64,000 nt of DNA from sequence record OR062946.1. One strand, 5' to 3'. Numbering within the stretch: position 1 is the first letter of the stretch; the number at the start of each line of letters is the position of its first letter. Positions 1-11,035 of the stretch are shown in pieces. A program made the translations under genes and the position numbers. The DNA comes from Escherichia phage 310Ecol104PP. The notes under the pieces were generated by a model, which was not told the origin of the DNA, ran no database searches, and was given only the letters and a program-made list of their open reading frames with translations.

Positions 1-396
1 TATGGTGAAACTGGTAAATCTCAATATGCTGCTGAAATAAAGGGGTATTTAGATGATTGGTATCGTTCTACGTTAATTGAACCTTTATCTCCGGAAGACG
101 CAGCTAAAAATAAAACACTATTTGAGAAAATGACATCGAGTTTAACTAACGTTCTAGTAGTTTCAAACCCGACAATTTGGATGGTGAAAAACTTTGGTGC
201 AACATCTAAGTTTGATGGAAAAACGGAAATATTTGGCCCATGCCAAATACAGAGCATCAGATTTGATAAAACACCTAATGGTAACTTTAACGGATTAGCT
301 ATTGCTCCAAACCTCCCTAGTACATTTACTCTTGAGATTACTATGAGAGAAATTATTACGTTAAACCGTGCTTCTTTATATGCGGGGACTTTTTAA
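1..396 (+). CDS. 48: baseplate tail-tube cap protein gp48, C-terminal part (start lies upstream of window)
   Basis: Open frame from position 1 with no stop until 394-396; sits immediately upstream of gene 54 as in T4; stop overlaps the gene 54 ATG by 1 nt. Confidence 0.6.
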   Translation, partial: YGETGKSQYAAEIKGYLDDWYRSTLIEPLSPEDAAKNKTLFEKMTSSLTNVLVVSNPTIWMVKNFGATSKFDGKTEIFGPCQIQSIRFDKTPNGNFNGLAIAPNLPSTFTLEITMREIITLNRASLYAGTF

Positions 397-1361
397 TGTA
401 TTCTTTAGAGGAATTTAATAATCAAGCAATAAACGCAGATTTCCAACGTAATAATATGTTTAGCTGCGTTTTTGCAACAACTCCATCAACTAAAAGCTCT
501 TCGTTGATAAGTTCAATTAGCAACTTTTCTTATAATAACTTGGGCCTAAATTCAGATTGGTTAGGATTAACTCAAGGTGATATTAATCAGGGAATTACTA
601 CGCTAATTACAGCTGGCACACAAAAACTGATAAGAAAATCAGGGGTTAGTAAATATCTTATTGGTGCCATGAGTCAACGTACAGTTCAAAGTTTATTAGG
701 CTCATTTACAGTTGGTACATATTTAATTGACTTCTTTAACATGGCATATAACTCATCTGGATTGATGATATACTCTGTAAAAATGCCAGAGAATAGATTA
801 TCCTATGAAACTGACTGGAACTACAATTCTCCTAATATTCGCATAACCGGGAGAGAATTAGACCCTTTGGTTATTTCATTTAGAATGGATTCAGAAGCTT
901 GTAACTATCGTGCAATGCAAGACTGGGTTAACTCCGTTCAAGACCCAGTAACTGGATTACGTGCTTTGCCACAAGATGTCGAGGCAGATATTCAGGTTAA
1001 TCTTCATTCTCGTAATGGATTACCTCATACTGCGGTGATGTTCACTGGATGCATTCCAATATCAGTGAGCGCTCCTGAGTTATCATATGATGGAGATAAC
1101 CAAATAACTACATTTGACGTTACTTTTGCGTATAGAGTGATGCAGGCTGGAGCAGTTGATAGGCAAGCTGCGCTTGAATGGCTTGAATCTGCTGCTATAA
1201 ATGGTATTCAAAGCGTTCTCGGAAATAGTGGAGGTGTTACTGGACTATCTAATTCGCTTTCACGACTCAGTAGATTAGGGGGAACTGCAGGAAGCATTTC
1301 AAACATTAATACTATGACAGGAATTGTCAATTCGCAAAGTAAAATATTAGGAGCAATATAA
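396..1361 (+). CDS. 54: baseplate tail-tube initiator gp54
   Basis: 321 aa ORF matching length and position of T4 gp54 (320 aa); late-gene orientation; followed by hairpin terminator. Confidence 0.8.
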   Translation: MYSLEEFNNQAINADFQRNNMFSCVFATTPSTKSSSLISSISNFSYNNLGLNSDWLGLTQGDINQGITTLITAGTQKLIRKSGVSKYLIGAMSQRTVQSLLGSFTVGTYLIDFFNMAYNSSGLMIYSVKMPENRLSYETDWNYNSPNIRITGRELDPLVISFRMDSEACNYRAMQDWVNSVQDPVTGLRALPQDVEADIQVNLHSRNGLPHTAVMFTGCIPISVSAPELSYDGDNQITTFDVTFAYRVMQAGAVDRQAALEWLESAAINGIQSVLGNSGGVTGLSNSLSRLSRLGGTAGSISNINTMTGIVNSQSKILGAI

Positions 1362-1365
1362 CAAT

Positions 1366-1383
1366 GGGGACCTTTCGGTCCCC
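1366..1383. terminator. hairpin GGGGACC-TTTC-GGTCCCC followed by T-run, between convergent gene 54 and minus-strand ORF
   Basis: Perfect 7 bp inverted repeat with 4 nt loop, T-rich tract downstream on plus strand. Confidence 0.6.
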
Positions 1384-1389
1384 ATATTT

Positions 1390-1680
1390 TTATTTACGGA
1401 ATGAAATAAAAGCAGCAACTGAAGCAACTAAACTGTCTTCAATATAAACCTCAATTTTTACCGGAGCTTCTGACTCAAATTTACCTGTTACTACACCTTG
1501 GAAAATACTTTCAGTCTGTTCTGGCTTTAAAAAATTTTCAGAAGGAAAAATTCCGAACTTTTTATCTGTTCCAAAAATTTTGATAAATTCATCGTAAACT
1601 GCTTCATTAAAAGCATTATCAGCAGGAATAACGCCTTCAACTACAAGTTCTTGACCTAAAAAGCGCAAAGAAGATTTCAT
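1390..1680 (-). CDS. hypothetical protein (position of T4 alt-adjacent small ORF)
   Basis: 96 aa ORF; GAGGA Shine-Dalgarno upstream of ATG; early promoter just upstream. Confidence 0.55.
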   Translation of the reverse strand: MKSSLRFLGQELVVEGVIPADNAFNEAVYDEFIKIFGTDKKFGIFPSENFLKPEQTESIFQGVVTGKFESEAPVKIEVYIEDSLVASVAAFISFRK

Positions 1681-1711
1681 TTTGTGTTCCTCATGTTATG
1701 TCAGTAAGACT

Positions 1712-1741
1712 ACTATAACACAACACGAGGGACTTGTAAAC
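1712..1741 (-). promoter_or_regulatory. T4-type early promoter (minus strand: GTTTAC -35, TATAGT -10)
   Basis: Reverse complement reads GTTTAC, spacer of about 18, TATAGT; near-identical copy at 17013-17042. Confidence 0.5.
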
Positions 1742-3798
1742 TACATCTTGAACTTTTTAGACATTCCGTTGATGTTAATCAAAGAAGCCAAGATTTGAGA
1801 AACTTCGTTTTCCTCTTCTTTTGATTCTTCTACAAGGAATTGATTAAATCCAGCCATTGGACGAACTTCACCAGTTTCCATTAAATGGTCGCCATCATAT
1901 ACTGATTCTTCTAATTGTTCAGAAGGAGGAACGATTGTACCTTCGATTAGATACTTGTTATAAGCAGTTTCTTTCATAAAGTACGTACTTACTTTATTAA
2001 TCTTCAGTAAAATTCCACGCGGTAGAATAACTTCAGCTTCTGATGGAAATCCTGATAAATGACCTGGAACGATAACTTTGATTCGCTCAGCTCCTTTAAT
2101 TACCATACCCACGCTAGTTTCAGCATCTTCAATGGCATATGTAGAATGACTACCCATATGCATTAAATCTTCTGCATCAACGGAACCTTCTCCTTCGCCA
2201 GAAAATACTGCGCCGGAATCATCTAGAGCCATATAGTTTTTACCATGCTCACCGAAGATATTTGGTTTAAGTGATGTCGATACGAAGTTCTTGAAATAGA
2301 ACATTTTGTTTTCAATGTTATGACGCAAAGTTTTAAAGGTAACTTCTTGTCCACGGTAAAGTGTAGTTCCTGGAGGAAGAACTGATCCTTTGGCAAAGGC
2401 AGAATCCAACGTCTCGATGTGCTTAATAGCTCGTTCCATATATTCTTCACGGGTAGAATCTGGTTTACCCAAAAGGAACGAGTTCATTTCAACATATGAA
2501 TCTGCACAATAATCTTCAATTACATCAGATTCAGCTTGGGTTAATCCTTTTGGAGTTACTTCGGTGCTTGCGTATTCATATGCCTGGGCAGCAGATTCAT
2601 TAATCAATTTATAAATGCCATTCATGACAAATTGAATAATAGCTGTCTTTTCATCTGGCGTAGCTTTAGAACCTTTAACTAAATCATTAATAATTTTCTT
2701 AATAACATCAAAGCTATTAGAAATATTAATGTCAGCAAGATCGCTTAAAATTTTATCAGTTTTATAATCAAAGAATTCTTTATTCTTTAAATATTCTTGA
2801 GAACCTTGATATGTTATATCGCTCTGCAACTTGATAGATGGATCACGTAAACGTGCATGGGCTAATGCAATATGATTTCGGAAGTTTTCTAGTTCGTAAT
2901 CGCTAGATTTAAAACGAGAAGCACTTCTCATACCACCAATAGCTCCTTTGCTGAAGTTTGAACCAATCTGAATAACGCCAGAGTTCATTGGTCCTTCTGC
3001 TTTATACACCGGAACTTTAGATTCAAACTCTTGATATTTCTTAGCAGCGAAGCTATCACCATGAAGTGAAGCATCGACAGTAGAATATTGAGCTTGTGCT
3101 GCTAATCGACGACTAATTTTAGTTTTCTGAATAACAGCTTGATCAGTGCGCTTATCATTTTCTAAAGCAATAGAAGCAGCAACAGCGACAGCTTTAGGAA
3201 CAGCATTACCTGTTTTAACGTCTACATAAACATCACCAACCTTTGATTCAACTTTTGTGAATAACTCAGTTGAAATAGGAGGTACACCTGGAATGTCTTC
3301 TAAATTGGCATTTTTACGGTAAACCATAATATATGCATATTTCTTATCATAGTCCCAGATTTCCTTTAAGAGAACATATCGACCTGCTCCTTTAGTACGT
3401 ACTAAACGGTCAGCAATAACTTGCATTTGACGAGCTGCGCCATTTGTTTTACTCTTTAGTACGCGGAATAGGCATGCGTCGATTTTATACTGTTTCATTG
3501 TTTGAAGAGCAGTATCAAAAACAGCATTAATGACGCCAATTGGATTTCCACCCAAGTTTCTAAGCTTAACCAGCGATAATTTCTCGTTGACACCTATCAT
3601 TACGATATGCATCATTTTATCGCCCGGCTTAACGTTTTTATTTGTATCACCGCCAGAGGTGTATGTACAAAATCTAAATCCAGGAAGCACGCTTTCTTCA
3701 CCGGCTTGAATAGCAAAAATTTGAGGTATTTTATGCTTAGGATTTAAGTTAACAACCGGCGCCGAAGCGCCGTCAAATAATTCTGTAATAAGTTCCAT
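1741..3798 (-). CDS. alt: Alt-family ADP-ribosyltransferase (paralog A)
   Basis: 685 aa; N-terminus MELITELFD...; ART signature YRGQ...STSL...EAEVILP in C-terminal third; T4 Alt is 682 aa at this map position. Confidence 0.8.
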   Translation of the reverse strand: MELITELFDGASAPVVNLNPKHKIPQIFAIQAGEESVLPGFRFCTYTSGGDTNKNVKPGDKMMHIVMIGVNEKLSLVKLRNLGGNPIGVINAVFDTALQTMKQYKIDACLFRVLKSKTNGAARQMQVIADRLVRTKGAGRYVLLKEIWDYDKKYAYIMVYRKNANLEDIPGVPPISTELFTKVESKVGDVYVDVKTGNAVPKAVAVAASIALENDKRTDQAVIQKTKISRRLAAQAQYSTVDASLHGDSFAAKKYQEFESKVPVYKAEGPMNSGVIQIGSNFSKGAIGGMRSASRFKSSDYELENFRNHIALAHARLRDPSIKLQSDITYQGSQEYLKNKEFFDYKTDKILSDLADINISNSFDVIKKIINDLVKGSKATPDEKTAIIQFVMNGIYKLINESAAQAYEYASTEVTPKGLTQAESDVIEDYCADSYVEMNSFLLGKPDSTREEYMERAIKHIETLDSAFAKGSVLPPGTTLYRGQEVTFKTLRHNIENKMFYFKNFVSTSLKPNIFGEHGKNYMALDDSGAVFSGEGEGSVDAEDLMHMGSHSTYAIEDAETSVGMVIKGAERIKVIVPGHLSGFPSEAEVILPRGILLKINKVSTYFMKETAYNKYLIEGTIVPPSEQLEESVYDGDHLMETGEVRPMAGFNQFLVEESKEEENEVSQILASLININGMSKKFKM

Positions 3799-3801
3799 GA
3801 T

Positions 3802-5898
3802 TTATCCTTGAACGAACTTGTAAGGCATGTTTGTAATATCTATGCAAGACGCAATAATTCCAAGAGATGATTCTACTTTCTGTTTAATATTTGATGAAAC
3901 AAATGATGCAAAGTCAACTCTGTCTTCTATTTCAATATCACCTGTCATTGCAACTACTTCGCCGGTTTCCATTAAATGGTCTCCGTCATAGATTACCGAT
4001 TCAGTGAGTTCTTCTGTGGTCATAACTTCAGCTTGAATGAGTTTTGTATTATTAGACGTGGTTCCGTCATTATTAGAAGCATCAGTTATTTTATTAACTT
4101 TAACCATCAATCCGCGCGGTAGAATAACTTCAGCTTCTGTTGCTATTCCGAGACTTCCTGGATATACAACATTAACTTTATGAGCTCCATCAATTGCCCA
4201 TCCTATTTGAACTTTAACGTATTCAGGATTTTCTTTATACGCTCTTATTTCGTTTGGATTAATAGTTATTCCTTCTTCATTTTTATCAACCGTTAATTCG
4301 TTACGAGCTTCTGGTTCTAAAAGACCAATACCAGCATGTGTAATTCCAAAACGCCCAAAAATGATAGGAGTTAAAGAAGTAGATACAAAATTTCTGAAAT
4401 AGAACACTTTATTTTTAACTAGTGCTTCGTATATAGGAGCAGTCATACTTTGAGCACGATAAACTGTGATGCCTTCCGGTATGCGGTCACCATTTTCAAA
4501 AGCTGAATCTAAGTTATTTATAGCAGATTCAATTTCTTTTTCACTCATTACATCATATCGTTCTGGATTGTAACGACCTAAAAGAAGATTATTAATGTCA
4601 GTATATCCTGAACCACAATACTCTCTAATGCCGCGCTTTTGTGATGGAGTATATTTAGAACCATCACGGGCAATAGTAATATCAATCATTGGACCTGCAC
4701 CAATTCCAGAAAAACTATAAATCATTCTTTTGAGGAATTTAGTTTTTGCTGCGTTCCAGGAATTTTTAGTCATTTCTTCCCAGACTTCATCTGGCTGCCC
4801 TTTACGAGTTTTATTATGTTTATCAAGCCAATTATCTTTATATTCTTCAAAGAGTTGATTAACAGCTGCTGCGTATTTCTCTAAACATTTTATTGAAGTA
4901 GTTGGTTCATTTTTAATCGCATTAAGAATTACATCTTTAATTTTTTCAGAAACTTCATTAACCTCACTTTTTGAAAAGAATTTATAGTCATAATGAAGTT
5001 CATTCGCAGTTCCTTCGGCAATAATTTTTGCTGCCTTAGTTTTAGAAGCTAATGAATTAATTCCAAGCTTCATTTCTTCTGCTTCGGGAATTAAAGGAGC
5101 GGTAGCAGGTTTATTGAAATTAGCTGCGGTAGATTCATACTTCTGGAATAATTCACTTTCAAATCTAGAAGATTCCAATGATTGACTTTGCGCAATTGCT
5201 CTACGGGAAATTTTAACTTTAACGATTACAGCTTGGTCAGAACGTTTATCATTTTCTTGTGCAATAGATGCTGCAATTGCCTCATTTTTAGTTACTTGAG
5301 CTCCAGTATCTTTATTGATATAAACATCGCCGACTTTCGATTCAACTTTAGTAAAGAGCTCGGTACTAATTTCCGGAACTCCTGGAATGTCTTCTAGTGA
5401 TACATTTTTGCGATGTATAAGAATATATGCATACTTTTTATCATAATCCCAGAGTTCCTTAAGAAGGACGTATCTGCCACCTGAACGACTACGGATAAGT
5501 CTATCAGCAATAACTTGAATTTGTCGAGCTTGACCAGCGGTTTTAGACTTAAGAATACGAAGCATACAAGCATCAATTTTATACTGACGCATTGTTTGCA
5601 TTGCAACAGTAAAAACTGAATTGATATAATTAATTGGGCTTGGACCGAGACCTTTTAATTTAGCAATTGAACCTTTGGCAGTTAATGTAAAAGGAACAAT
5701 ATGCATCATTTTATCGCCCATCTTTAAATCGCGATTAGTATCACCTCCAGATGTATAGGTGCATAAACGAAAGCCTGGTTGTTCAATTGCATCATCAACA
5801 CGAACTGAAAAAATTTGCGGTATTTTCTTCTTTGGATTTAAGTTTGTAATCGGAAGAGTAGTATCTTCGTCAAATAATTCTGTAATAAGTTCCATCAT
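3802..5898 (-). CDS. Alt-family ADP-ribosyltransferase (paralog B)
   Basis: 698 aa; shares about 230 aa N-terminal region and the YRAQ...STSL...EAEVILP motifs with paralog A but has a diverged central region; late promoter TATAAATA about 20 nt upstream. Confidence 0.8.
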   Translation of the reverse strand: MMELITELFDEDTTLPITNLNPKKKIPQIFSVRVDDAIEQPGFRLCTYTSGGDTNRDLKMGDKMMHIVPFTLTAKGSIAKLKGLGPSPINYINSVFTVAMQTMRQYKIDACMLRILKSKTAGQARQIQVIADRLIRSRSGGRYVLLKELWDYDKKYAYILIHRKNVSLEDIPGVPEISTELFTKVESKVGDVYINKDTGAQVTKNEAIAASIAQENDKRSDQAVIVKVKISRRAIAQSQSLESSRFESELFQKYESTAANFNKPATAPLIPEAEEMKLGINSLASKTKAAKIIAEGTANELHYDYKFFSKSEVNEVSEKIKDVILNAIKNEPTTSIKCLEKYAAAVNQLFEEYKDNWLDKHNKTRKGQPDEVWEEMTKNSWNAAKTKFLKRMIYSFSGIGAGPMIDITIARDGSKYTPSQKRGIREYCGSGYTDINNLLLGRYNPERYDVMSEKEIESAINNLDSAFENGDRIPEGITVYRAQSMTAPIYEALVKNKVFYFRNFVSTSLTPIIFGRFGITHAGIGLLEPEARNELTVDKNEEGITINPNEIRAYKENPEYVKVQIGWAIDGAHKVNVVYPGSLGIATEAEVILPRGLMVKVNKITDASNNDGTTSNNTKLIQAEVMTTEELTESVIYDGDHLMETGEVVAMTGDIEIEDRVDFASFVSSNIKQKVESSLGIIASCIDITNMPYKFVQG

Positions 5899-5918
5899 AG
5901 CCTCTCTAGTGTTTATTC

Positions 5919-5926
5919 TATTTATA
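5919..5926 (-). promoter_or_regulatory. T4 late promoter TATAAATA (minus strand) upstream of Alt paralog B
   Basis: Plus-strand tatttata; reverse complement is the late-promoter consensus; about 20 nt upstream of start codon. Confidence 0.6.
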
Positions 5927-5931
5927 AAATT

Positions 5932-5949
5932 AAAGGCCCGAAGGCCTTT
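5932..5949 (-). terminator. hairpin AAAGGCC-CGAA-GGCCTTT (C(UUCG)G tetraloop on minus-strand RNA)
   Basis: Perfect palindrome; identical 18-mer recurs at 53486-53503. Confidence 0.55.
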
Positions 5950-6136
5950 AATAATCTATTGGTAAGAGAGTACGATATATTTCAAACTTTGGACCTTTTT
6001 CATAAGCATCAAAAGTTTCTGTGAATTTATTATAAGCATATGCATCTATAAATTCAATCATGATTTGTGATACAGAAGTAGAAACATCTCCACCTTCTTT
6101 TTGAGCCACGACAATTGTTTCTAAGTAAGCTTTCAT
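5948..6136 (-). CDS. hypothetical protein, 62 aa
   Basis: ORF overlapping gene 30 stop; operon context. Confidence 0.45.
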   Translation of the reverse strand: MKAYLETIVVAQKEGGDVSTSVSQIMIEFIDAYAYNKFTETFDAYEKGPKFEIYRTLLPIDY

Positions 6137-7596
6137 AGACCAGTTACCTCATGAAAATCACCAAATACATCTTCGAATGTATTAGCTTTAGTTTTATCTT
6201 CACGTAAACGAATCGCAATCGGAAGAAATAATTTAACGTAATCAGTGCGGCCATCGGATTTTAACCAACCGTTGCATTCGCACTCTAGAATTTTTCCAAT
6301 ATAATAATTTTGGTTTTCCATAATGCGAGTACGGTCAAGTTCATGTGATTTTACACCGGCTTTATCTTTTAAGCCTGAACCAGCATTTACTTTAATTTTT
6401 CCACACTCTGATTCAAGAATAAATCCACCTGCTTTAGTAGGGTCTTTACGGTGAGGATAAATTCCTACAATTTTTAAATCAACATCAATTACTTCTTTAA
6501 ATTTATAGAGATTTTTTGAACGAGCATTTTCCCACAATCCATCGGTATTTTTGAGAATAATACCTTCAAGACCTTGGTCAATATACTTTTTATAAATTAC
6601 CTTAGCTTCATCTAGGTTATTTACTACCTGGTTTTCAATTAAAATTACTTTATCATATCCTGATGTCATTTGTTCTAGTTTAGAAAAACGTACATCATAT
6701 TTTAAACGAAATGCTGGAAGACCGTATATTTCTACCAACGGAACATAATCCCAGACCTGAAACTTCATGCATTGAGCTTCTTTTTCTGAAATAGTTCCCT
6801 TTAAAGATTTATTAGCGATTCCATTAGAAGTAGTACGTGATTCAGCTACTTCAGCAAACTCTTTAGCTTTACTAATTTCAGGATAAGCATCAAAAAGAAA
6901 ATCTAGGCCTTCTGGCTCCTTTTTAACTTGCTCATGGTATACCAATTCGCCATCAATTAACACACCTTCTGGATGAATCTGGCGGGCTTCAGCGGTCATT
7001 TTGATTAACTCTTCCTTAAGAAGATCTAATCCTAGATATTCATTACCAGCTCGTGATAAAAGACGGACATCATCTAATTCATCACCTCTAACTTCAGCAA
7101 AACACCGAGCTCCATCTGCTTTTAATTGTGCAAAGGCTGGAAATTTGATATTCTTACTAATGCCTTTTTCATCATAAGAACTTGCGAGCATTTGAGGTTG
7201 TTCAGGAATTAAACCTGGCCAAACTTTGTTCGCAATAGATACTGAAGCGCCACATTCAAGATCTCGCATCATCACTCGACGCAAAACTTCAACATCATCT
7301 TTTTTACCATCGGTGATGTATCCAGTTAATTCCTCAATTGCAGCATTTCCAGTCAATTTCCGAGTAGCTAACGTGAATTCAATGAAGTCAAGCATATCGG
7401 TAATAGTCAGCATTCCAAAACTCTGGGTAGCAATACCAGGTTTAGGCCATTTCTTTATATAATACTGTAACCCACGAGAATAAGTCAGACGATATACTCG
7501 TTTAAGCAATTCATTATCTTTATTCTTTTCAAGAATTGCTTGCTTCTGCTTAGTTGAACCAATAGATGCTATTTCGTTCAGAATTTTAAGAATCAT
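6133..7596 (-). CDS. 30: ATP-dependent DNA ligase gp30
   Basis: 487 aa, same length as T4 DNA ligase; KxDG-type adenylation lysine context (FAQLKADGARCF); map position between alt and rIII. Confidence 0.9.
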   Translation of the reverse strand: MILKILNEIASIGSTKQKQAILEKNKDNELLKRVYRLTYSRGLQYYIKKWPKPGIATQSFGMLTITDMLDFIEFTLATRKLTGNAAIEELTGYITDGKKDDVEVLRRVMMRDLECGASVSIANKVWPGLIPEQPQMLASSYDEKGISKNIKFPAFAQLKADGARCFAEVRGDELDDVRLLSRAGNEYLGLDLLKEELIKMTAEARQIHPEGVLIDGELVYHEQVKKEPEGLDFLFDAYPEISKAKEFAEVAESRTTSNGIANKSLKGTISEKEAQCMKFQVWDYVPLVEIYGLPAFRLKYDVRFSKLEQMTSGYDKVILIENQVVNNLDEAKVIYKKYIDQGLEGIILKNTDGLWENARSKNLYKFKEVIDVDLKIVGIYPHRKDPTKAGGFILESECGKIKVNAGSGLKDKAGVKSHELDRTRIMENQNYYIGKILECECNGWLKSDGRTDYVKLFLPIAIRLREDKTKANTFEDVFGDFHEVTGL

Positions 7597-7862
7597 TGTT
7601 CATCCTTTAGAGTTTGGTTTACAGCTCTATTATAAATCAATTCATCATTAAGCTCAGTCAAAGACCTATGGTACGTGGTTCTAACTTTATTTCCTTGCAT
7701 CCAGTGTTTGACGTAAATGAAACCTTGCTCTACACATTTTTTAAAAATTCGTTCGTCTTTTTGAGCTCGGAATTCTGGATTGCATCTAAAAAATTGATTT
7801 ACGTGACCGTAATCACGTGTAGTATTACCTTCATTTTCATAAATAGTGTGAACGACAAACAT
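7593..7862 (-). CDS. hypothetical protein, 89 aa (T4 30.x region)
   Basis: ORF with ATGA-type overlap to gene 30. Confidence 0.5.
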   Translation of the reverse strand: MFVVHTIYENEGNTTRDYGHVNQFFRCNPEFRAQKDERIFKKCVEQGFIYVKHWMQGNKVRTTYHRSLTELNDELIYNRAVNQTLKDEQ

Positions 7863-8725
7863 TAGAATGCTCCTTGGAAAATATTATCACCACTAGTAAA
7901 TCTATTAAAATACCCTGCATCACCAGGCTTAGTATAACTCCACGTATGGAATGGATTCATATGATACGGGTGTGTATAATATGGATTATATGGATGTGTA
8001 TAATATGGATTATACGGATTAAATCCAGGAGTTCTCCAGGTAGTGTTCCAACGAAAAGAATCGTTTTTAACCATCTTCTCAATTACATCTTTTATAGCTT
8101 TTTCACTATCAAAACTTTCTTTATTTTCCTTCGGTGAAAAAAGCTTATTTTCTACATCATTCCATGTATAAACTCGCTGAGCGGTTTTTGGAATATTGTC
8201 ACGCTCTCCTCGCGCCATCCAATAAACAGGAACATTTAATATTTCACTCGCATGATCGCAGTGGTGAGCGAGATCGTCAATATAACAAATTACGTTATAT
8301 TTCTCTTTTGCCTTTTTGAACAACTCTTCTTTTGAAGAATCATGACCACACATCATTACTTCTGAGAAGGCACCAGGAAAAAGAGCATTCAAATTAAATT
8401 GACGATTCAACAGAGCGTCAATAGAATCACCCAACGCTGTAACAGCTACAAAATTATAATCTTCTTTTAATTTGTTAATTACGCACAGGGCGTCTTTATA
8501 TGGAGACAAATAACGAATAAAATCTGAACGATTGTATTTTTCAATTAACTTGACGCCAAGTTCTTCATCACAATTAAAGAGTTTACCCGGAGAAATAAAT
8601 TTCTCATCTTGAATCATTTTTAAAATATGTTCTAACGGAAGATTATATTTCTGAGCAAAATAAGGAAGGCCTGATTGCCAGCTTAAACATACTCCATCAA
8701 TATCAGTTAAAATAGTAGGCTTCAT
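7862..8725 (-). CDS. HAD-superfamily phosphatase-like protein with Tyr/Pro-rich C-terminal repeat
   Basis: N-terminal ILTDIDGV (DxDG motif I) and later YIDD motif; C-terminus NPYNPYYTHPYNPYYTHPY encoded by a tandem 24 bp repeat. Confidence 0.6.
   Translation of the reverse strand: MKPTILTDIDGVCLSWQSGLPYFAQKYNLPLEHILKMIQDEKFISPGKLFNCDEELGVKLIEKYNRSDFIRYLSPYKDALCVINKLKEDYNFVAVTALGDSIDALLNRQFNLNALFPGAFSEVMMCGHDSSKEELFKKAKEKYNVICYIDDLAHHCDHASEILNVPVYWMARGERDNIPKTAQRVYTWNDVENKLFSPKENKESFDSEKAIKDVIEKMVKNDSFRWNTTWRTPGFNPYNPYYTHPYNPYYTHPYHMNPFHTWSYTKPGDAGYFNRFTSGDNIFQGAF
7972..8019. repeat. 2 x 24 bp tandem direct repeat inside the HAD-like ORF
   Basis: gtgtataatatggattatatggat / gtgtataatatggattatacggat, one mismatch. 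Confidence 0.85.
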
Positions 8726-9186
8726 AGAGAGTCTCTTAATAGATTTAACACATCAATAAATTCAGCTTCGGTTAGTATTGTATCATCTTTTGTTAGACCA
8801 CTAGCCATGCTGTGCTTCAAAACTTTTCCTTTCGAGGCTTGTAATGCATCGCGAAAGCCCTTGTTTTGGAACGCTGCTTCAAAATATGCATTTGTGTATA
8901 ATTCTTTCCATGCTTCGGAATATCTTGAAAACGGAGTTCCAAGCCAGAACAACGTGCCACGGTCCTGAGCTCTAGCATAAGCTCGTCCAGCTTGTTGGGC
9001 GGCAAGCCCGGATAACCCAAATATACGACGCTGTTGTTCAACATTTTTCACCTTGCATCCTTGGAGGAATCCTTCGAGACCTCCAAATTGAATACCATCC
9101 ATAACGAAAGGCCATTGGGCGAAATTACTTAATGCGCATGATGGCCATCTAAAATTGCTTCTTATCTCTAGCTCAGACATTTTCAA
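8722..9186 (-). CDS. NADAR (YbiA-like, DUF1768) domain protein
   Basis: 154 aa; LSNFAQWPFVMDGIQF...EGFLQGCK resembles the FSNF..WP...DG...EHYFQAQK core of YbiA/NADAR proteins. Confidence 0.6.
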   Translation of the reverse strand: MKMSELEIRSNFRWPSCALSNFAQWPFVMDGIQFGGLEGFLQGCKVKNVEQQRRIFGLSGLAAQQAGRAYARAQDRGTLFWLGTPFSRYSEAWKELYTNAYFEAAFQNKGFRDALQASKGKVLKHSMASGLTKDDTILTEAEFIDVLNLLRDSL

Positions 9187-9379
9187 TACTTATAATTTCA
9201 ACATCAGCCCAATGACCATAGCAAGGAAGACGAAATTCAACTGGCCAGTTAGGGTCCTTTTCTAATATAATAGACTGAACTTGTGGCTCTTCATATTCAT
9301 CGGTATACGGACCTTTATACGTTACTTTATATGTGACCTTAATGTACTGAATTCCAAAAATCTTATTAATTATATTCAT
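9173..9379 (-). CDS. hypothetical protein, 68 aa
   Basis: ORF in tightly packed minus-strand operon. Confidence 0.45.
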   Translation of the reverse strand: MNIINKIFGIQYIKVTYKVTYKGPYTDEYEEPQVQSIILEKDPNWPVEFRLPCYGHWADVEIISIENV

Positions 9380-9573
9380 ACTAATTCCTTTAATCCGTAA
9401 ATAGGAGATAATTCATCACCCATACGAAGGTCTTCATTTCCATCTACCCAGGAAACAATATAAGCCTCTTTTATTTGAATACCACTCCATTTAAATGGAG
9501 GTAGAACCTTAGAAATTAATCCAGGTATACCAACTCCCTTTAATTCAACAGTTTGACCTAAAAAGAATTTCAT
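9376..9573 (-). CDS. hypothetical protein, 65 aa
   Basis: ORF with overlapping start/stop to neighbours. Confidence 0.45.
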   Translation of the reverse strand: MKFFLGQTVELKGVGIPGLISKVLPPFKWSGIQIKEAYIVSWVDGNEDLRMGDELSPIYGLKELV

Positions 9574-9860
9574 TAGAACCTCATCTGAAAACCATGCGAT
9601 TTAACATTACCGCCGCCAATATCAGAAATGTTAATTTCACGCGCAATTGAAGGGTCAATGTCAATTTCACGATTAAGTTTAGTGATAGCTAAAGTATCGC
9701 GGCCATTTACAGTACGGAACTCTAAAGGGCAGACTATATTAACATAGTTTTTAATCGATTCACTAGTAGGCTGCAAATGAGCAGGAAGGTCTTTAGGTGC
9801 CTTAGAGAAAACCACTTCACAGAAATTTTTGCGGGTATCAAAATAAGTAGTCATAAACAT
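9573..9860 (-). CDS. hypothetical protein, 95 aa
   Basis: ORF preceded by hairpin and RBS. Confidence 0.5.
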   Translation of the reverse strand: MFMTTYFDTRKNFCEVVFSKAPKDLPAHLQPTSESIKNYVNIVCPLEFRTVNGRDTLAITKLNREIDIDPSIAREINISDIGGGNVKSHGFQMRF

Positions 9861-9877
9861 AGTATTTACCTCAGTAA

Positions 9878-9891
9878 GGGGCCGAAGCCCC
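9878..9891 (-). terminator. intercistronic hairpin GGGGC-CGAA-GCCCC
   Basis: Perfect 5 bp GC stem with tetraloop between two minus-strand ORFs. Confidence 0.45.
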
Positions 9892-9901
9892 TCATTTTAT
9901 T

Positions 9902-10267
9902 TTAAATATCAAATTCGTTAAGAACTACATCAAAGATTGCTTCAAGATGCTCAGGTTTAGCTCTGTTACTCAGAATATGACGAATCCAAGTTTTAACCAG
10001 AAGCTTGCGATTAACGCCATTCCAGCAAGGATGAGTCCCTAAATCGCGTTGACGAAAATCATCATCCAATGCGATTTTAAAAGAAGAACCTTCTTTCGTG
10101 ATTGAAACCGTGATGCCATTTTCAAATCGCATATAAACGTAGTTAGGAGTCATATACTGTTCAATTTCGCATACTGATCCATTTTGATGTTTCCAAAGGC
10201 AGATAGTATCAATAGAACCTGCAATACCGTTAGAAACATATTTACGTTCAAAGTTGATGTAATTCAT
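9902..10267 (-). CDS. hypothetical protein, 121 aa
   Basis: ORF downstream of early promoter 10305-10333. Confidence 0.55.
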   Translation of the reverse strand: MNYINFERKYVSNGIAGSIDTICLWKHQNGSVCEIEQYMTPNYVYMRFENGITVSITKEGSSFKIALDDDFRQRDLGTHPCWNGVNRKLLVKTWIRHILSNRAKPEHLEAIFDVVLNEFDI

Positions 10268-10304
10268 TTTTATTCTCCGAGATGTTTAATTGCGGTACAG
10301 GTAT

Positions 10305-10333
10305 ATAATATCATATCCTGTACCAAAGTAAAC
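10305..10333 (-). promoter_or_regulatory. T4-type early promoter (GTTTAC, 17 nt spacer, TATTAT)
   Basis: Read on minus strand. Confidence 0.5.
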
Positions 10334-10337
10334 TATT

Positions 10338-10706
10338 TTATGCAACTTTAATCCAATTATCTAAATTTAATTCACCTTTGGCTTTCATTTTTTCAATCAA
10401 GAGGTCAGCGGTAATACGACCATTTTGATACCACGTAACATCTTCAGAGTAACCAGTTTCTTTATCTTCATAAGTCTCACAGCGAATTTTACCAAGAATC
10501 AAAGTTTTTAATTCGTATGTATCTCCAGTAAAAAAGTTAGTTAACATTATTTTCCAAGAGAAATCATCAGAAGGACCTTCAGGAGTCATGCAACCTACAA
10601 ATTCAAATTGTTCTTTGTATAAGTGCCACTGAAGTTCTTTAGTTTCGATAGCTTTATAGCCGTCGTGGTCTTTACCTTTGATGTATGAGTTAAGATTGAT
10701 TTTCAT
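10338..10706 (-). CDS. hypothetical protein, 122 aa
   Basis: ORF downstream of early promoter 10734-10763. Confidence 0.55.
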   Translation of the reverse strand: MKINLNSYIKGKDHDGYKAIETKELQWHLYKEQFEFVGCMTPEGPSDDFSWKIMLTNFFTGDTYELKTLILGKIRCETYEDKETGYSEDVTWYQNGRITADLLIEKMKAKGELNLDNWIKVA

Positions 10707-10733
10707 TTTATTCTCCTTTGTTTGTGTAAGATA

Positions 10734-10763
10734 ATACTATCACAAAGGAGCCATACTGTAAAC
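10734..10763 (-). promoter_or_regulatory. T4-type early promoter (GTTTAC -35, TAGTAT-like -10)
   Basis: Read on minus strand. Confidence 0.4.
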
Positions 10764-10793
10764 AACTTTGTGCAATCTTTGGAAAATAAAAAA

Positions 10794-10811
10794 GGACTCC
10801 CGAAGGAGTCC
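10794..10811 (-). terminator. rho-independent terminator, GGACTCC-CGAA-GGAGTCC then U-run on minus-strand RNA
   Basis: Perfect 7 bp stem, UUCG loop on minus strand, followed by TTTTTTATTTT. Confidence 0.65.
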
Positions 10812-10816
10812 TTAAC

Positions 10817-11035
10817 TTATGCTTTCTGCTTACCAAAACGAGAAGCATCATCTCGAAGAACCGCACGTGCTCGGCGCATGATCTTCTCAACAGTTTGATT
10901 GATACGAGAGTTCGACCCACGCTTGTAACCAGCGCGTTTAGAATCACCAACTTTCTTTTCAACTGCTTTCTTTGCTTTAGCTTGTTTTGCCATTATAAAT
11001 TCTCTTTTAAATGAAAATGCAGGACTTATTGGCAT
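10817..11035 (-). CDS. small lysine/arginine-rich basic protein (true start may be internal Met 15)
   Basis: 72 aa ORF, MAKQAKAKKAVEKKVGDSKRAGYKRG...; followed by terminator. Confidence 0.45.
   Translation of the reverse strand: MPISPAFSFKREFIMAKQAKAKKAVEKKVGDSKRAGYKRGSNSRINQTVEKIMRRARAVLRDDASRFGKQKA

Follow-up and report, generated by a model that had tools for sequence, protein, structure and literature searches.

Do two adjacent genes for Alt-family ADP-ribosyltransferases (ARTs) in a T4-like phage encode two working enzymes with targets of their own, or is one a spare or failing copy of the other? The question is raised by a 64,000-nucleotide stretch of Escherichia phage 310Ecol104PP (sequence record OR062946.1; hereafter the window), in which we confirmed two adjacent minus-strand open reading frames (ORFs) first described in a sequence-only reading, here called A (1741–3798, 685 aa) and B (3802–5898, 698 aa). 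We conclude, with a probability of roughly 0.78, that the window carries alt (B) followed by an old paralogue, alt.-2 (A), that both encode arginine-type ARTs, probably late-expressed, packaged and injected, with different or partly overlapping targets, and that the pair is the common state, from which T4 has lost most of A.

Comparison of A with B reveals a strong but uneven relationship. End to end the two proteins are 41% identical by BLASTP (E = 8e-163, far beyond chance). Residues 1–238 are 67% identical, so the sequence-only reading overstated the case in calling an N-terminal region of about 230 aa near-identical. Its description of the middle as unrelated holds for residues ~240–410, which are effectively unalignable (3–20% identity), but the divergence goes on through the catalytic domain and the C terminus: the ART domain is 28–47% identical save for one loop block at 7% (alignment columns 561–600), which is the region between the STS and E-x-E motifs, and the C-terminal tail is 30–36% identical. 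At the DNA level, the proportions of synonymous and nonsynonymous differences (pS and pN) are both about 0.6 in the central region. The N-terminal domains (N-domains) have pS 0.67, a saturated synonymous distance (dS) of ~1.7, a nonsynonymous distance (dN) of 0.29 and a ratio omega of 0.17, and the longest exact match common to the two genes is 28 nt.

Both A and B look like working enzymes. The proteins have a common Alt architecture of N-domain, helical linker, ART domain and conserved C-terminal tail; phrog_802 (Alt-like) covers A residues 1–685 (E = 5e-256) and B residues 1–696 (E = 1e-272), Pfam PF03496 scores 71.8 bits in A and 129.4 bits in B (cut-off 23.4), and the combination of PF26846 and PF03496 is precomputed for a 98%-identical homologue. 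The R / S-T-S / E-x-E layout occurs in both proteins where it had been read, with aligned motifs and intact catalytic residues (Table 1). In A, the second copy, R482, S507, S509, E587 and E589 are all present and are invariant in an alignment of 15 sequences 43–95% identical to A; across 61 family members the catalytic R, S, S, E and E are kept in at least 90%. The predicted structure has the ART fold, a split beta-sandwich with preceding helices. Nei–Gojobori estimates of dN/dS are 0.028, 0.047 and 0.069 for A (compared with RB32, PST and ECML-134, respectively) and 0.085 for B, and A is under strong purifying selection. From these sequence features we regard A and B as intact Alt-family mono-ADP-ribosyltransferases of the arginine type, the chemistry shown in the literature for T4 Alt, which is dependent on nicotinamide adenine dinucleotide (NAD+). 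A sequence search of the PDB returned nothing for A and weak CdtA/iota matches only for B, and NCBIfam holds no model for either protein.

The targets of A and B are probably different or only partly overlapping, because their effector parts (linker plus ART domain) are just 3–47% identical, although conservation of each across phages is tight. The middle region is a plausible substrate selector. Divergence in the region from STS to E-x-E is equally strong, and in C3-like ARTs this region contributes to substrate recognition.

Of the two copies, B is the orthologue of T4 Alt (gpAlt, NP_049811), a head-packaged NAD+:arginine ADP-ribosyltransferase. The two are 70% identical overall and 99% identical over residues 1–238, lie in the same position with the same neighbours, and share the ITE-6 and LTE motifs, the late-promoter position and the R / STS / E-x-E residues, although T4 Alt has E-M-E where B has E-A-E. 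A has the whole architecture of T4 Alt at 41% identity and belongs to a separate paralogue lineage that in T4 is reduced to fragments. These fragments, alt.-1 (61 aa) and alt.-2 (67 aa), differ very little from A over its residues 1–56 and 62–117, and their PHROG families match A (phrog_23015, E = 2e-40; phrog_15247, E = 1e-37) better than B (1e-21 and 2e-19). Two lesions separate T4 from the window: DNA alignment locates the loss of one adenine from an adenine run, a 1-bp frameshift that splits the reading frame, and blastn of T4 against the window shows that window positions 1761–3450 (1.69 kb, codons ~117–679 of A) are absent, with CTAAARAGT present at both ends of the deletion junction as a 9-bp microhomology. 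The sequences thus point clearly to alt.-1 and alt.-2 as the remnant of a full-length A gene cut down by frameshift and deletion, whereas the T4 annotation calls them an "old partial duplication".

Standard T4 therefore holds just a remnant of A, not both copies unchanged, and it is T4 that is atypical at this locus, the two-gene state being the majority state of the genus. The unique C-terminal 446 aa of A are encoded at ≥95% identity in 401 phage records, against 91 records with the T4-type deletion junction; the rarity that the sequence-only reading implied did not bear out, and the pair is already annotated. A megablast search with window positions 1300–6200 matched 544 phage records, the best being Escherichia phage AdolfPortmann at 99.5% DNA identity, while RB32, RB27, RB33 and several T2 records matched over the full length at 97.5–97.7%. 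Relatives label the pair "ADP-ribosyltransferase (x2)" or "Alt-like RNA polymerase ADP-ribosyltransferase (x2)", and RB32 labels it "alt" and "alt.-2 ... similar to alt". On the basis of these matches and their gene annotations, we assign the window to a T2/RB32-type Tequatrovirus. The first 9 kb of the window follow the gene order of the T4 gene 54–30 region, with the alt locus transcribed leftward between gene 30/alt.1 and alt.-3/gene 54 as in T4 and RB32.

Conservation of processing signals suggests that A is also packaged. In T4, about 40 copies of Alt reside in the prohead core and leave the head together with the DNA (PMC9026906). The gp21 protease cuts past ITE-6 and past LTE-619, removing both ends of the protein and leaving 68.2 kDa (PMC5694885), a mass that we reproduced from the T4 sequence; the same paper asks whether the two Alt propeptides target, tether or control activity. 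Because the known Alt processing signals are short terminal propeptides, packaging of A is supported by the retention of both in A (Table 1). E6 is kept in at least 90% of 61 homologues, and the aligned C-terminal glutamate is likewise conserved across the family. Mature A is predicted to comprise residues 7–631 (69.2 kDa), and residues 1–11 and 629–663 are disordered in the structure model of A. With both protease motifs kept and a start 3 nt after B, behind the late promoter of B, A is probably packaged and injected too.

The arrangement of the two genes is consistent with a single late transcript. As the sequence-only reading noted, only B has a putative late promoter directly upstream: the TATAAATA octamer lies at 5919–5926 on the minus strand, 23 nt upstream of the B ATG at 5895, and the 3-nt gap between the B stop codon (3802–3804) and the A ATG (3796–3798), a spacing also found in RB32, holds no such octamer. 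A further copy lies within B at 4515–4522 on the minus strand, 717 nt upstream of A. Downstream on the strand of the pair there is one terminator-like hairpin only, at 1364–1385, past alt.-3. The octamer at 5919–5926 is thus the likely start of an alt/alt.-2/alt.-3 late transcript, and a hairpin just upstream of it, which overlaps the alt.1 stop codon (5932–5949), is probably the terminator of the early gene 30/alt.1 transcript. B itself begins with two adjacent ATG codons (MMELITE; 5893–5898, minus strand). The second ATG (5895) is the likelier start, giving 697 rather than 698 aa, because it yields the MELITE start found in T4 and RB32 and because the Shine–Dalgarno sequence GAGAGG (5901–5906) lies 5 nt from it and just 2 nt from the first. 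In the 682-aa T4 sequence the second glutamate of E-x-E has a number one lower than in the published "Alt E577A", a hint that the numbering of some authors includes an extra residue.

In the mechanism that we propose, each protein consists of four parts: an N-terminal propeptide ending at ITE-6, a domain of ~240 aa, an effector made of helical linker and ART domain, and a C-terminal propeptide after LxE. A late transcript that starts at the TATAAATA promoter and ends at the terminator at 1364–1385 would cover alt, alt.-2 and alt.-3; A and B would enter the prohead core, lose both termini there to the gp21 protease, as T4 Alt is known to do, and pass with the DNA into the next host, where they would each ADP-ribosylate host proteins on arginine with NAD+.

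Table 1. Features of the alt locus (window positions, except in the last row)
Feature	Position	Strand	Remark
A = alt.-2 of RB32 annotation, second full-length Alt-like ADP-ribosyltransferase, 685 aa	1741–3798	-	
N-domain of A, residues 1–238	3085–3798	-	67% identity to B; AlphaFold2 (AF2) model, predicted local distance difference test (pLDDT) 89.5
Central region of A, residues 239–410, divergent, all-helical	2569–3084	-	3–20% identity to B; helices in AF2 model
Catalytic core of A	2020–2358	-	R482 in YRGQ 481–484 (2347–2358); S507-T508-S509 (2272–2280); E587-A-E589 in EAEVILP 587–593 (2020–2040)
ITE-6 prohead-protease motif of A	3781–3789	-	first codons; identical MELITE start
LEE/SV of A, residues 629–633	1900–1914	-	predicted cut past LEE-631; aligned with T4 Alt LTE-619; E631 invariant
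YDGDHLMETGE tail of A, conserved	1867–1899	-	directly after LEE/SV
AAGGA Shine–Dalgarno sequence of A	3805–3809	-	inside last codons of B
B = alt, T4 Alt orthologue, 697/698 aa	3802–5895/5898	-	70% identity, position, phrog_802, PF03496
N-domain of B, residues 1–238	5182–5895	-	99% identity to T4 Alt, dS 0.11
Central region of B, residues 239–410, divergent	4666–5181	-	mostly 17–28% identity to T4 Alt too
Catalytic core of B	4117–4461	-	R480 in YRAQ 479–482 (4450–4461); STS 505–507 (4375–4383); E587-A-E589 in EAEVILP 587–593 (4117–4137)
ITE-6 motif of B	5878–5886	-	
LTE/SV of B, residues 630–634	3994–4008	-	LTE-632; same motif as T4 Alt LTE-619
TATAAATA putative late-promoter octamer upstream of B	5919–5926	-	exact match; function inferred from T4 late-promoter consensus
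G+C-rich hairpin AAAGGCC-TTCG-GGCCTTT	5932–5949	-	read from sequence; not in terminator-scan list
gp54	396–1361	+	gene order as T4
alt.-3 (DUF5498, 96 aa)	1390–1680	-	downstream neighbour of A
alt.1 (62 aa; Pfam Phage_blade)	5948–6136	-	upstream neighbour of B
Gene 30 DNA ligase (gp30)	6133–7596	-	upstream of alt.1
B/A hybrid genes, in their own locus sequences	PST 802–2862; ECML-134 802–2862; metagenome contigs 5001–7055, 4001–6061, 4001–6061		

The relationship between B and T4 Alt is itself a mosaic. Along the codons of B, dS to T4 alt is 0.11 (1–245), 1.7 (246–410), 1.3 (411–600) and 0.29 (601–697); protein identity is 17–28% in the helical part, 55–77% in the ART domain and 88–93% in the C-tail (window 4096–5181 covers B residues ~240–600), and blastn detects no DNA similarity to T4 over window 4659–5089. 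This pattern indicates that the central ~350 codons of alt are a different allele, exchanged between lineages. A tblastn search with the central part of alt resolves at least four allele classes within the genus, one at ≥95% identity in 314 records, one at ~81% (MX01-like) and two at ~45%, whose matches span 1011 and 1050 nt.

Five further loci have a single gene between alt.1 and alt.-3 that switches cleanly once from B-type to A-type sequence: those of the isolates Yersinia phage PST and Escherichia phage ECML-134 and of three metagenome contigs. The switch points are all different, at A residues 43–54, 98–102, 147–158, 174–192 and 218–224, and the hybrids seem to have arisen by unequal crossing-over within the N-domain common to both paralogues, which left one gene in place of two. 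Assembly artefacts, considered because three of the hybrids come from metagenome assemblies, were rejected as the sole explanation: two finished isolate genomes, PST and ECML-134, show the same single-gene layout, and assembly collapse is unlikely as a general explanation because exact matches between A and B are all shorter than 31 nt.

Expansion of the locus is seen as well. Dhakavirus MX01 has three tandem alt genes (locus 4989–10891), each 3 nt apart, of 694 aa, 681 aa and, by record coordinates, 707 aa for the third, which is cut at the locus end. N-domains are more alike within a genome (A–B 67%; MX01 66–88%) than between genera (41–46%), whereas effector parts match across genera (B versus MX01 ORF196 77%; A versus MX01 ORF194 54%) better than they match their paralogues within a genome (33–39%); for comparison, the neighbouring ligases of this phage and MX01 are 62% identical. 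The MX01 pattern suggests either ancient homogenisation of N-domains within lineages or transfer of effector cassettes between lineages. Taken together, these comparisons support a modular Alt protein with a joint near residue 240, because this position parts the 99%-identical N-domain from the 17–28% centre in B versus T4 Alt, and, when MX01 is compared, parts N-domains that are genome-specific from effectors that are portable. In a further phage, the annotation of fDHCT2 includes an "alt_3".

Several observations weigh against a pair of packaged enzymes with separate targets. The case for distinct substrate ranges is drawn from sequence divergence only, a search of the accessible literature for a characterised second Alt copy yielded nothing beyond Nolan et al. 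2006 (PMC1524935), and a search for proteomic evidence of A in virions found none. TATAAATA is not enriched in the window (7 octamers found versus 9.2 expected), and therefore its position, rather than its occurrence, carries weight. A is dispensable, being absent from T4 and 90 other records, and so is the effector part of B, since PST and ECML-134 carry only a B/A hybrid. Neither effector is thus essential, as T4-type phages have lost that of A and the PST/ECML-134 hybrids that of B, which leaves room for partial redundancy, and such losses would also be expected if A and B were redundant, acting on common targets such as RNA polymerase alpha Arg265 with the second copy adding dose or robustness. 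Both proteins moreover have the E-x-E, arginine-type signature. We nevertheless consider redundancy unlikely: the effector parts reach at most 47% identity and fall to 7% in the loop from STS to E-x-E, each effector type is kept across genera at 77% and 54% to MX01 while paralogues within a genome are 33–39% identical, and the distinct types have long been retained in about 400 genomes with dN/dS below 0.1.

The negative result on A in virions, together with the incompletely defined packaging determinants of Alt, would also fit a functional A that stays out of the head and acts late in the producing cell or in another intracellular role, leaving B alone to be injected. This is less probable still, since an identical MELITE start, an aligned LxE site and the conserved tail YDGDHLMETGE are all retained by A, which shares a probable late operon with B and supplies the effector that, behind a B N-terminus, forms the sole alt of PST and ECML-134 and so apparently fills the Alt role. 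It is hardly credible that A is a duplicate without function or on its way to becoming a pseudogene; T4 does have only the fragments alt.-1 and alt.-2, annotated as an old partial duplication, but these derive by frameshift and deletion from a gene that here is an intact 685-codon ORF with invariant catalytic residues and dN/dS of 0.03–0.07, conserved at ≥95% in 401 records. Recent gene conversion between the tandem copies, in place of functional constraint, might be invoked for the similarity of the N-domains, as recombination does occur here (the five hybrids have crossovers inside the N-domain) and N-domains resemble each other more closely inside one genome than across genera. We think this improbable as well: synonymous sites in the A and B N-domains are saturated, dN is 0.29 and the longest exact match spans 28 nt, which excludes recent conversion in this lineage and makes any homogenisation old. 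Selection now maintains the similarity.

Our preferred reading, two injected enzymes with diverged effectors, leads to a more speculative extension that we hold tentatively and think rather doubtful as it stands. The alt locus could be a modular effector-cassette system in which a constant chassis carries a central helical-plus-ART cassette whose type and number (1 to 3 copies) differ from phage to phage through swapping, duplication or collapse as host targets or defences change. The chassis, made of the ITE propeptide, the ~240-aa N-domain and the LxE tail, may both deliver the protein to the head and act as homology arms in recombination.

The N-domain, labelled PF26846 (Tevenvirinae_ADPRT) in precomputed Pfam tables for homologues, appears from sequence searches to be confined to the Alt-like proteins of T4-type phages. 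When 1.84 billion representatives were searched exhaustively with phmmer, only 69 proteins matched; the match starts no later than residue 46 in all of them, and almost all full-length members are 560–790 aa. Eight of ten distant N-domain proteins carry PF03496, and one protein (P0189) has a degenerate ART-like region. Word-indexed searches, run with the N-domain by itself or with its profile, gave truncated Alt forms and nothing else. Fusion of the N-domain to non-ART effectors found no sequence support in these searches, and a tblastn search with P0190 matched Alt N-domains only. Separately, a Foldseek search of the A N-domain (window 3085–3798) against BFVD predicted viral structures matched Alt homologues and large uncharacterised myovirus proteins, the latter with E-values of 1e-9 to 1e-4 and template modelling (TM) scores of 0.4–0.6. 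Targets include A0A2L0UZ96, A0A6J5KPZ7_1, A0A6J5LH38 and A0A0A0YVG6, from Ackermannviridae-like, Vibrio, Aeromonas and Agrobacterium jumbo phages, and some matches are labelled zeta-toxin, deaminase or ParB/Srx (E = 1e-6 to 1e-4). As a weaker, unverified lead from these models, the N-domain fold may be a more general head-delivery module heading non-ART effector proteins.

The gene pair is already known and ordinary, being annotated in RefSeq and GenBank for hundreds of phages. A is the same gene, of the same length, as alt.-2 of RB32 and the second copy of T2 ("Alt-like RNA polymerase ADP-ribosyltransferase"), with 97.7% DNA identity over the locus and no substantive difference. Alt duplications in T4-like phages, including T4 alt.-1/alt.-2 and 44RR ORF187c, were described by Nolan et al. 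2006 (PMC1524935), and tandem full-length paralogues form multi-copy alt arrays in other Tevenvirinae (JS98 "altb"; MX01 ORF194–196; 44RR ORF187c). The MX01 array occupies the same locus, from gene 30/alt.1 to the baseplate genes; its ORF196 pairs with B and its ORF194 with A, and its third type, ORF195, with E-Q-E, is absent from the pair studied here. More distant relatives differ in architecture or delivery. R-S-E clade bacterial ART toxins (Vis, C3, the enzymatic components of iota/CDTa/VIP2, and Certhrax) have 13–25% sequence identity, have neither the Alt N-domain nor prohead-protease propeptides, and are delivered by secretion or binary toxin pores, not by a phage head. The paralogous R-S-E ARTs ModA and ModB of T4, from the same phage group (PMC5512222), are small early proteins that are unpackaged and, unlike A and B, have no N-domain. 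To this background our analysis makes modest additions: the T4 deletion mechanism, the recurrent B/A hybrids, the exchange of alt cassettes and the within-genome similarity of N-domains.

These results bear on the use of T4 as the model phage, since most of its relatives have two distinct Alt-type enzymes, encoded if not also injected, and some have genes for three, and the second enzyme has apparently never been characterised. Studies of host takeover or anti-defence ADP-ribosylation would see the full enzyme set in a T2/RB32-type phage, not in T4, and the hybrids and cassette swaps, as chimeras made by nature, place a domain boundary near residue 240.

Minor features of the surrounding region were also recorded. 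The hairpin at 1364–1385 is a strong bidirectional terminator between alt.-3 and gene 54. Between the A stop codon and alt.-3, a site resembling a T4 early promoter (TTTACA-17-TATAGT with a TG extension; 1712–1740, minus strand) is present, and alt.-3 may have two modes of expression, one early and one at the end of the late alt transcript. Scanning the window for Rfam families and tRNAs gave no match. The Pfam assignment of alt.1 (5948–6136, minus strand) to Phage_blade is to PF24647 (E = 7.5e-29), a family only recently named. The gp30.2 homologue (7862–8725, minus strand; 287 aa) ends in a short tandem peptide repeat (NPYNPYYTHPY NPYYTHPY ...), and with lengths of 278 aa in T4 and 279 or 284 aa in a related contig this looks like variation in the length of the repeat tail. 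Within the gene 30.3 homologue (8722–9186, minus strand), a 75-aa ORF in another frame (8817–9044, minus strand) corresponds to the internal out-of-frame product annotated in T4 as 30.3', and its open frame is conserved here.

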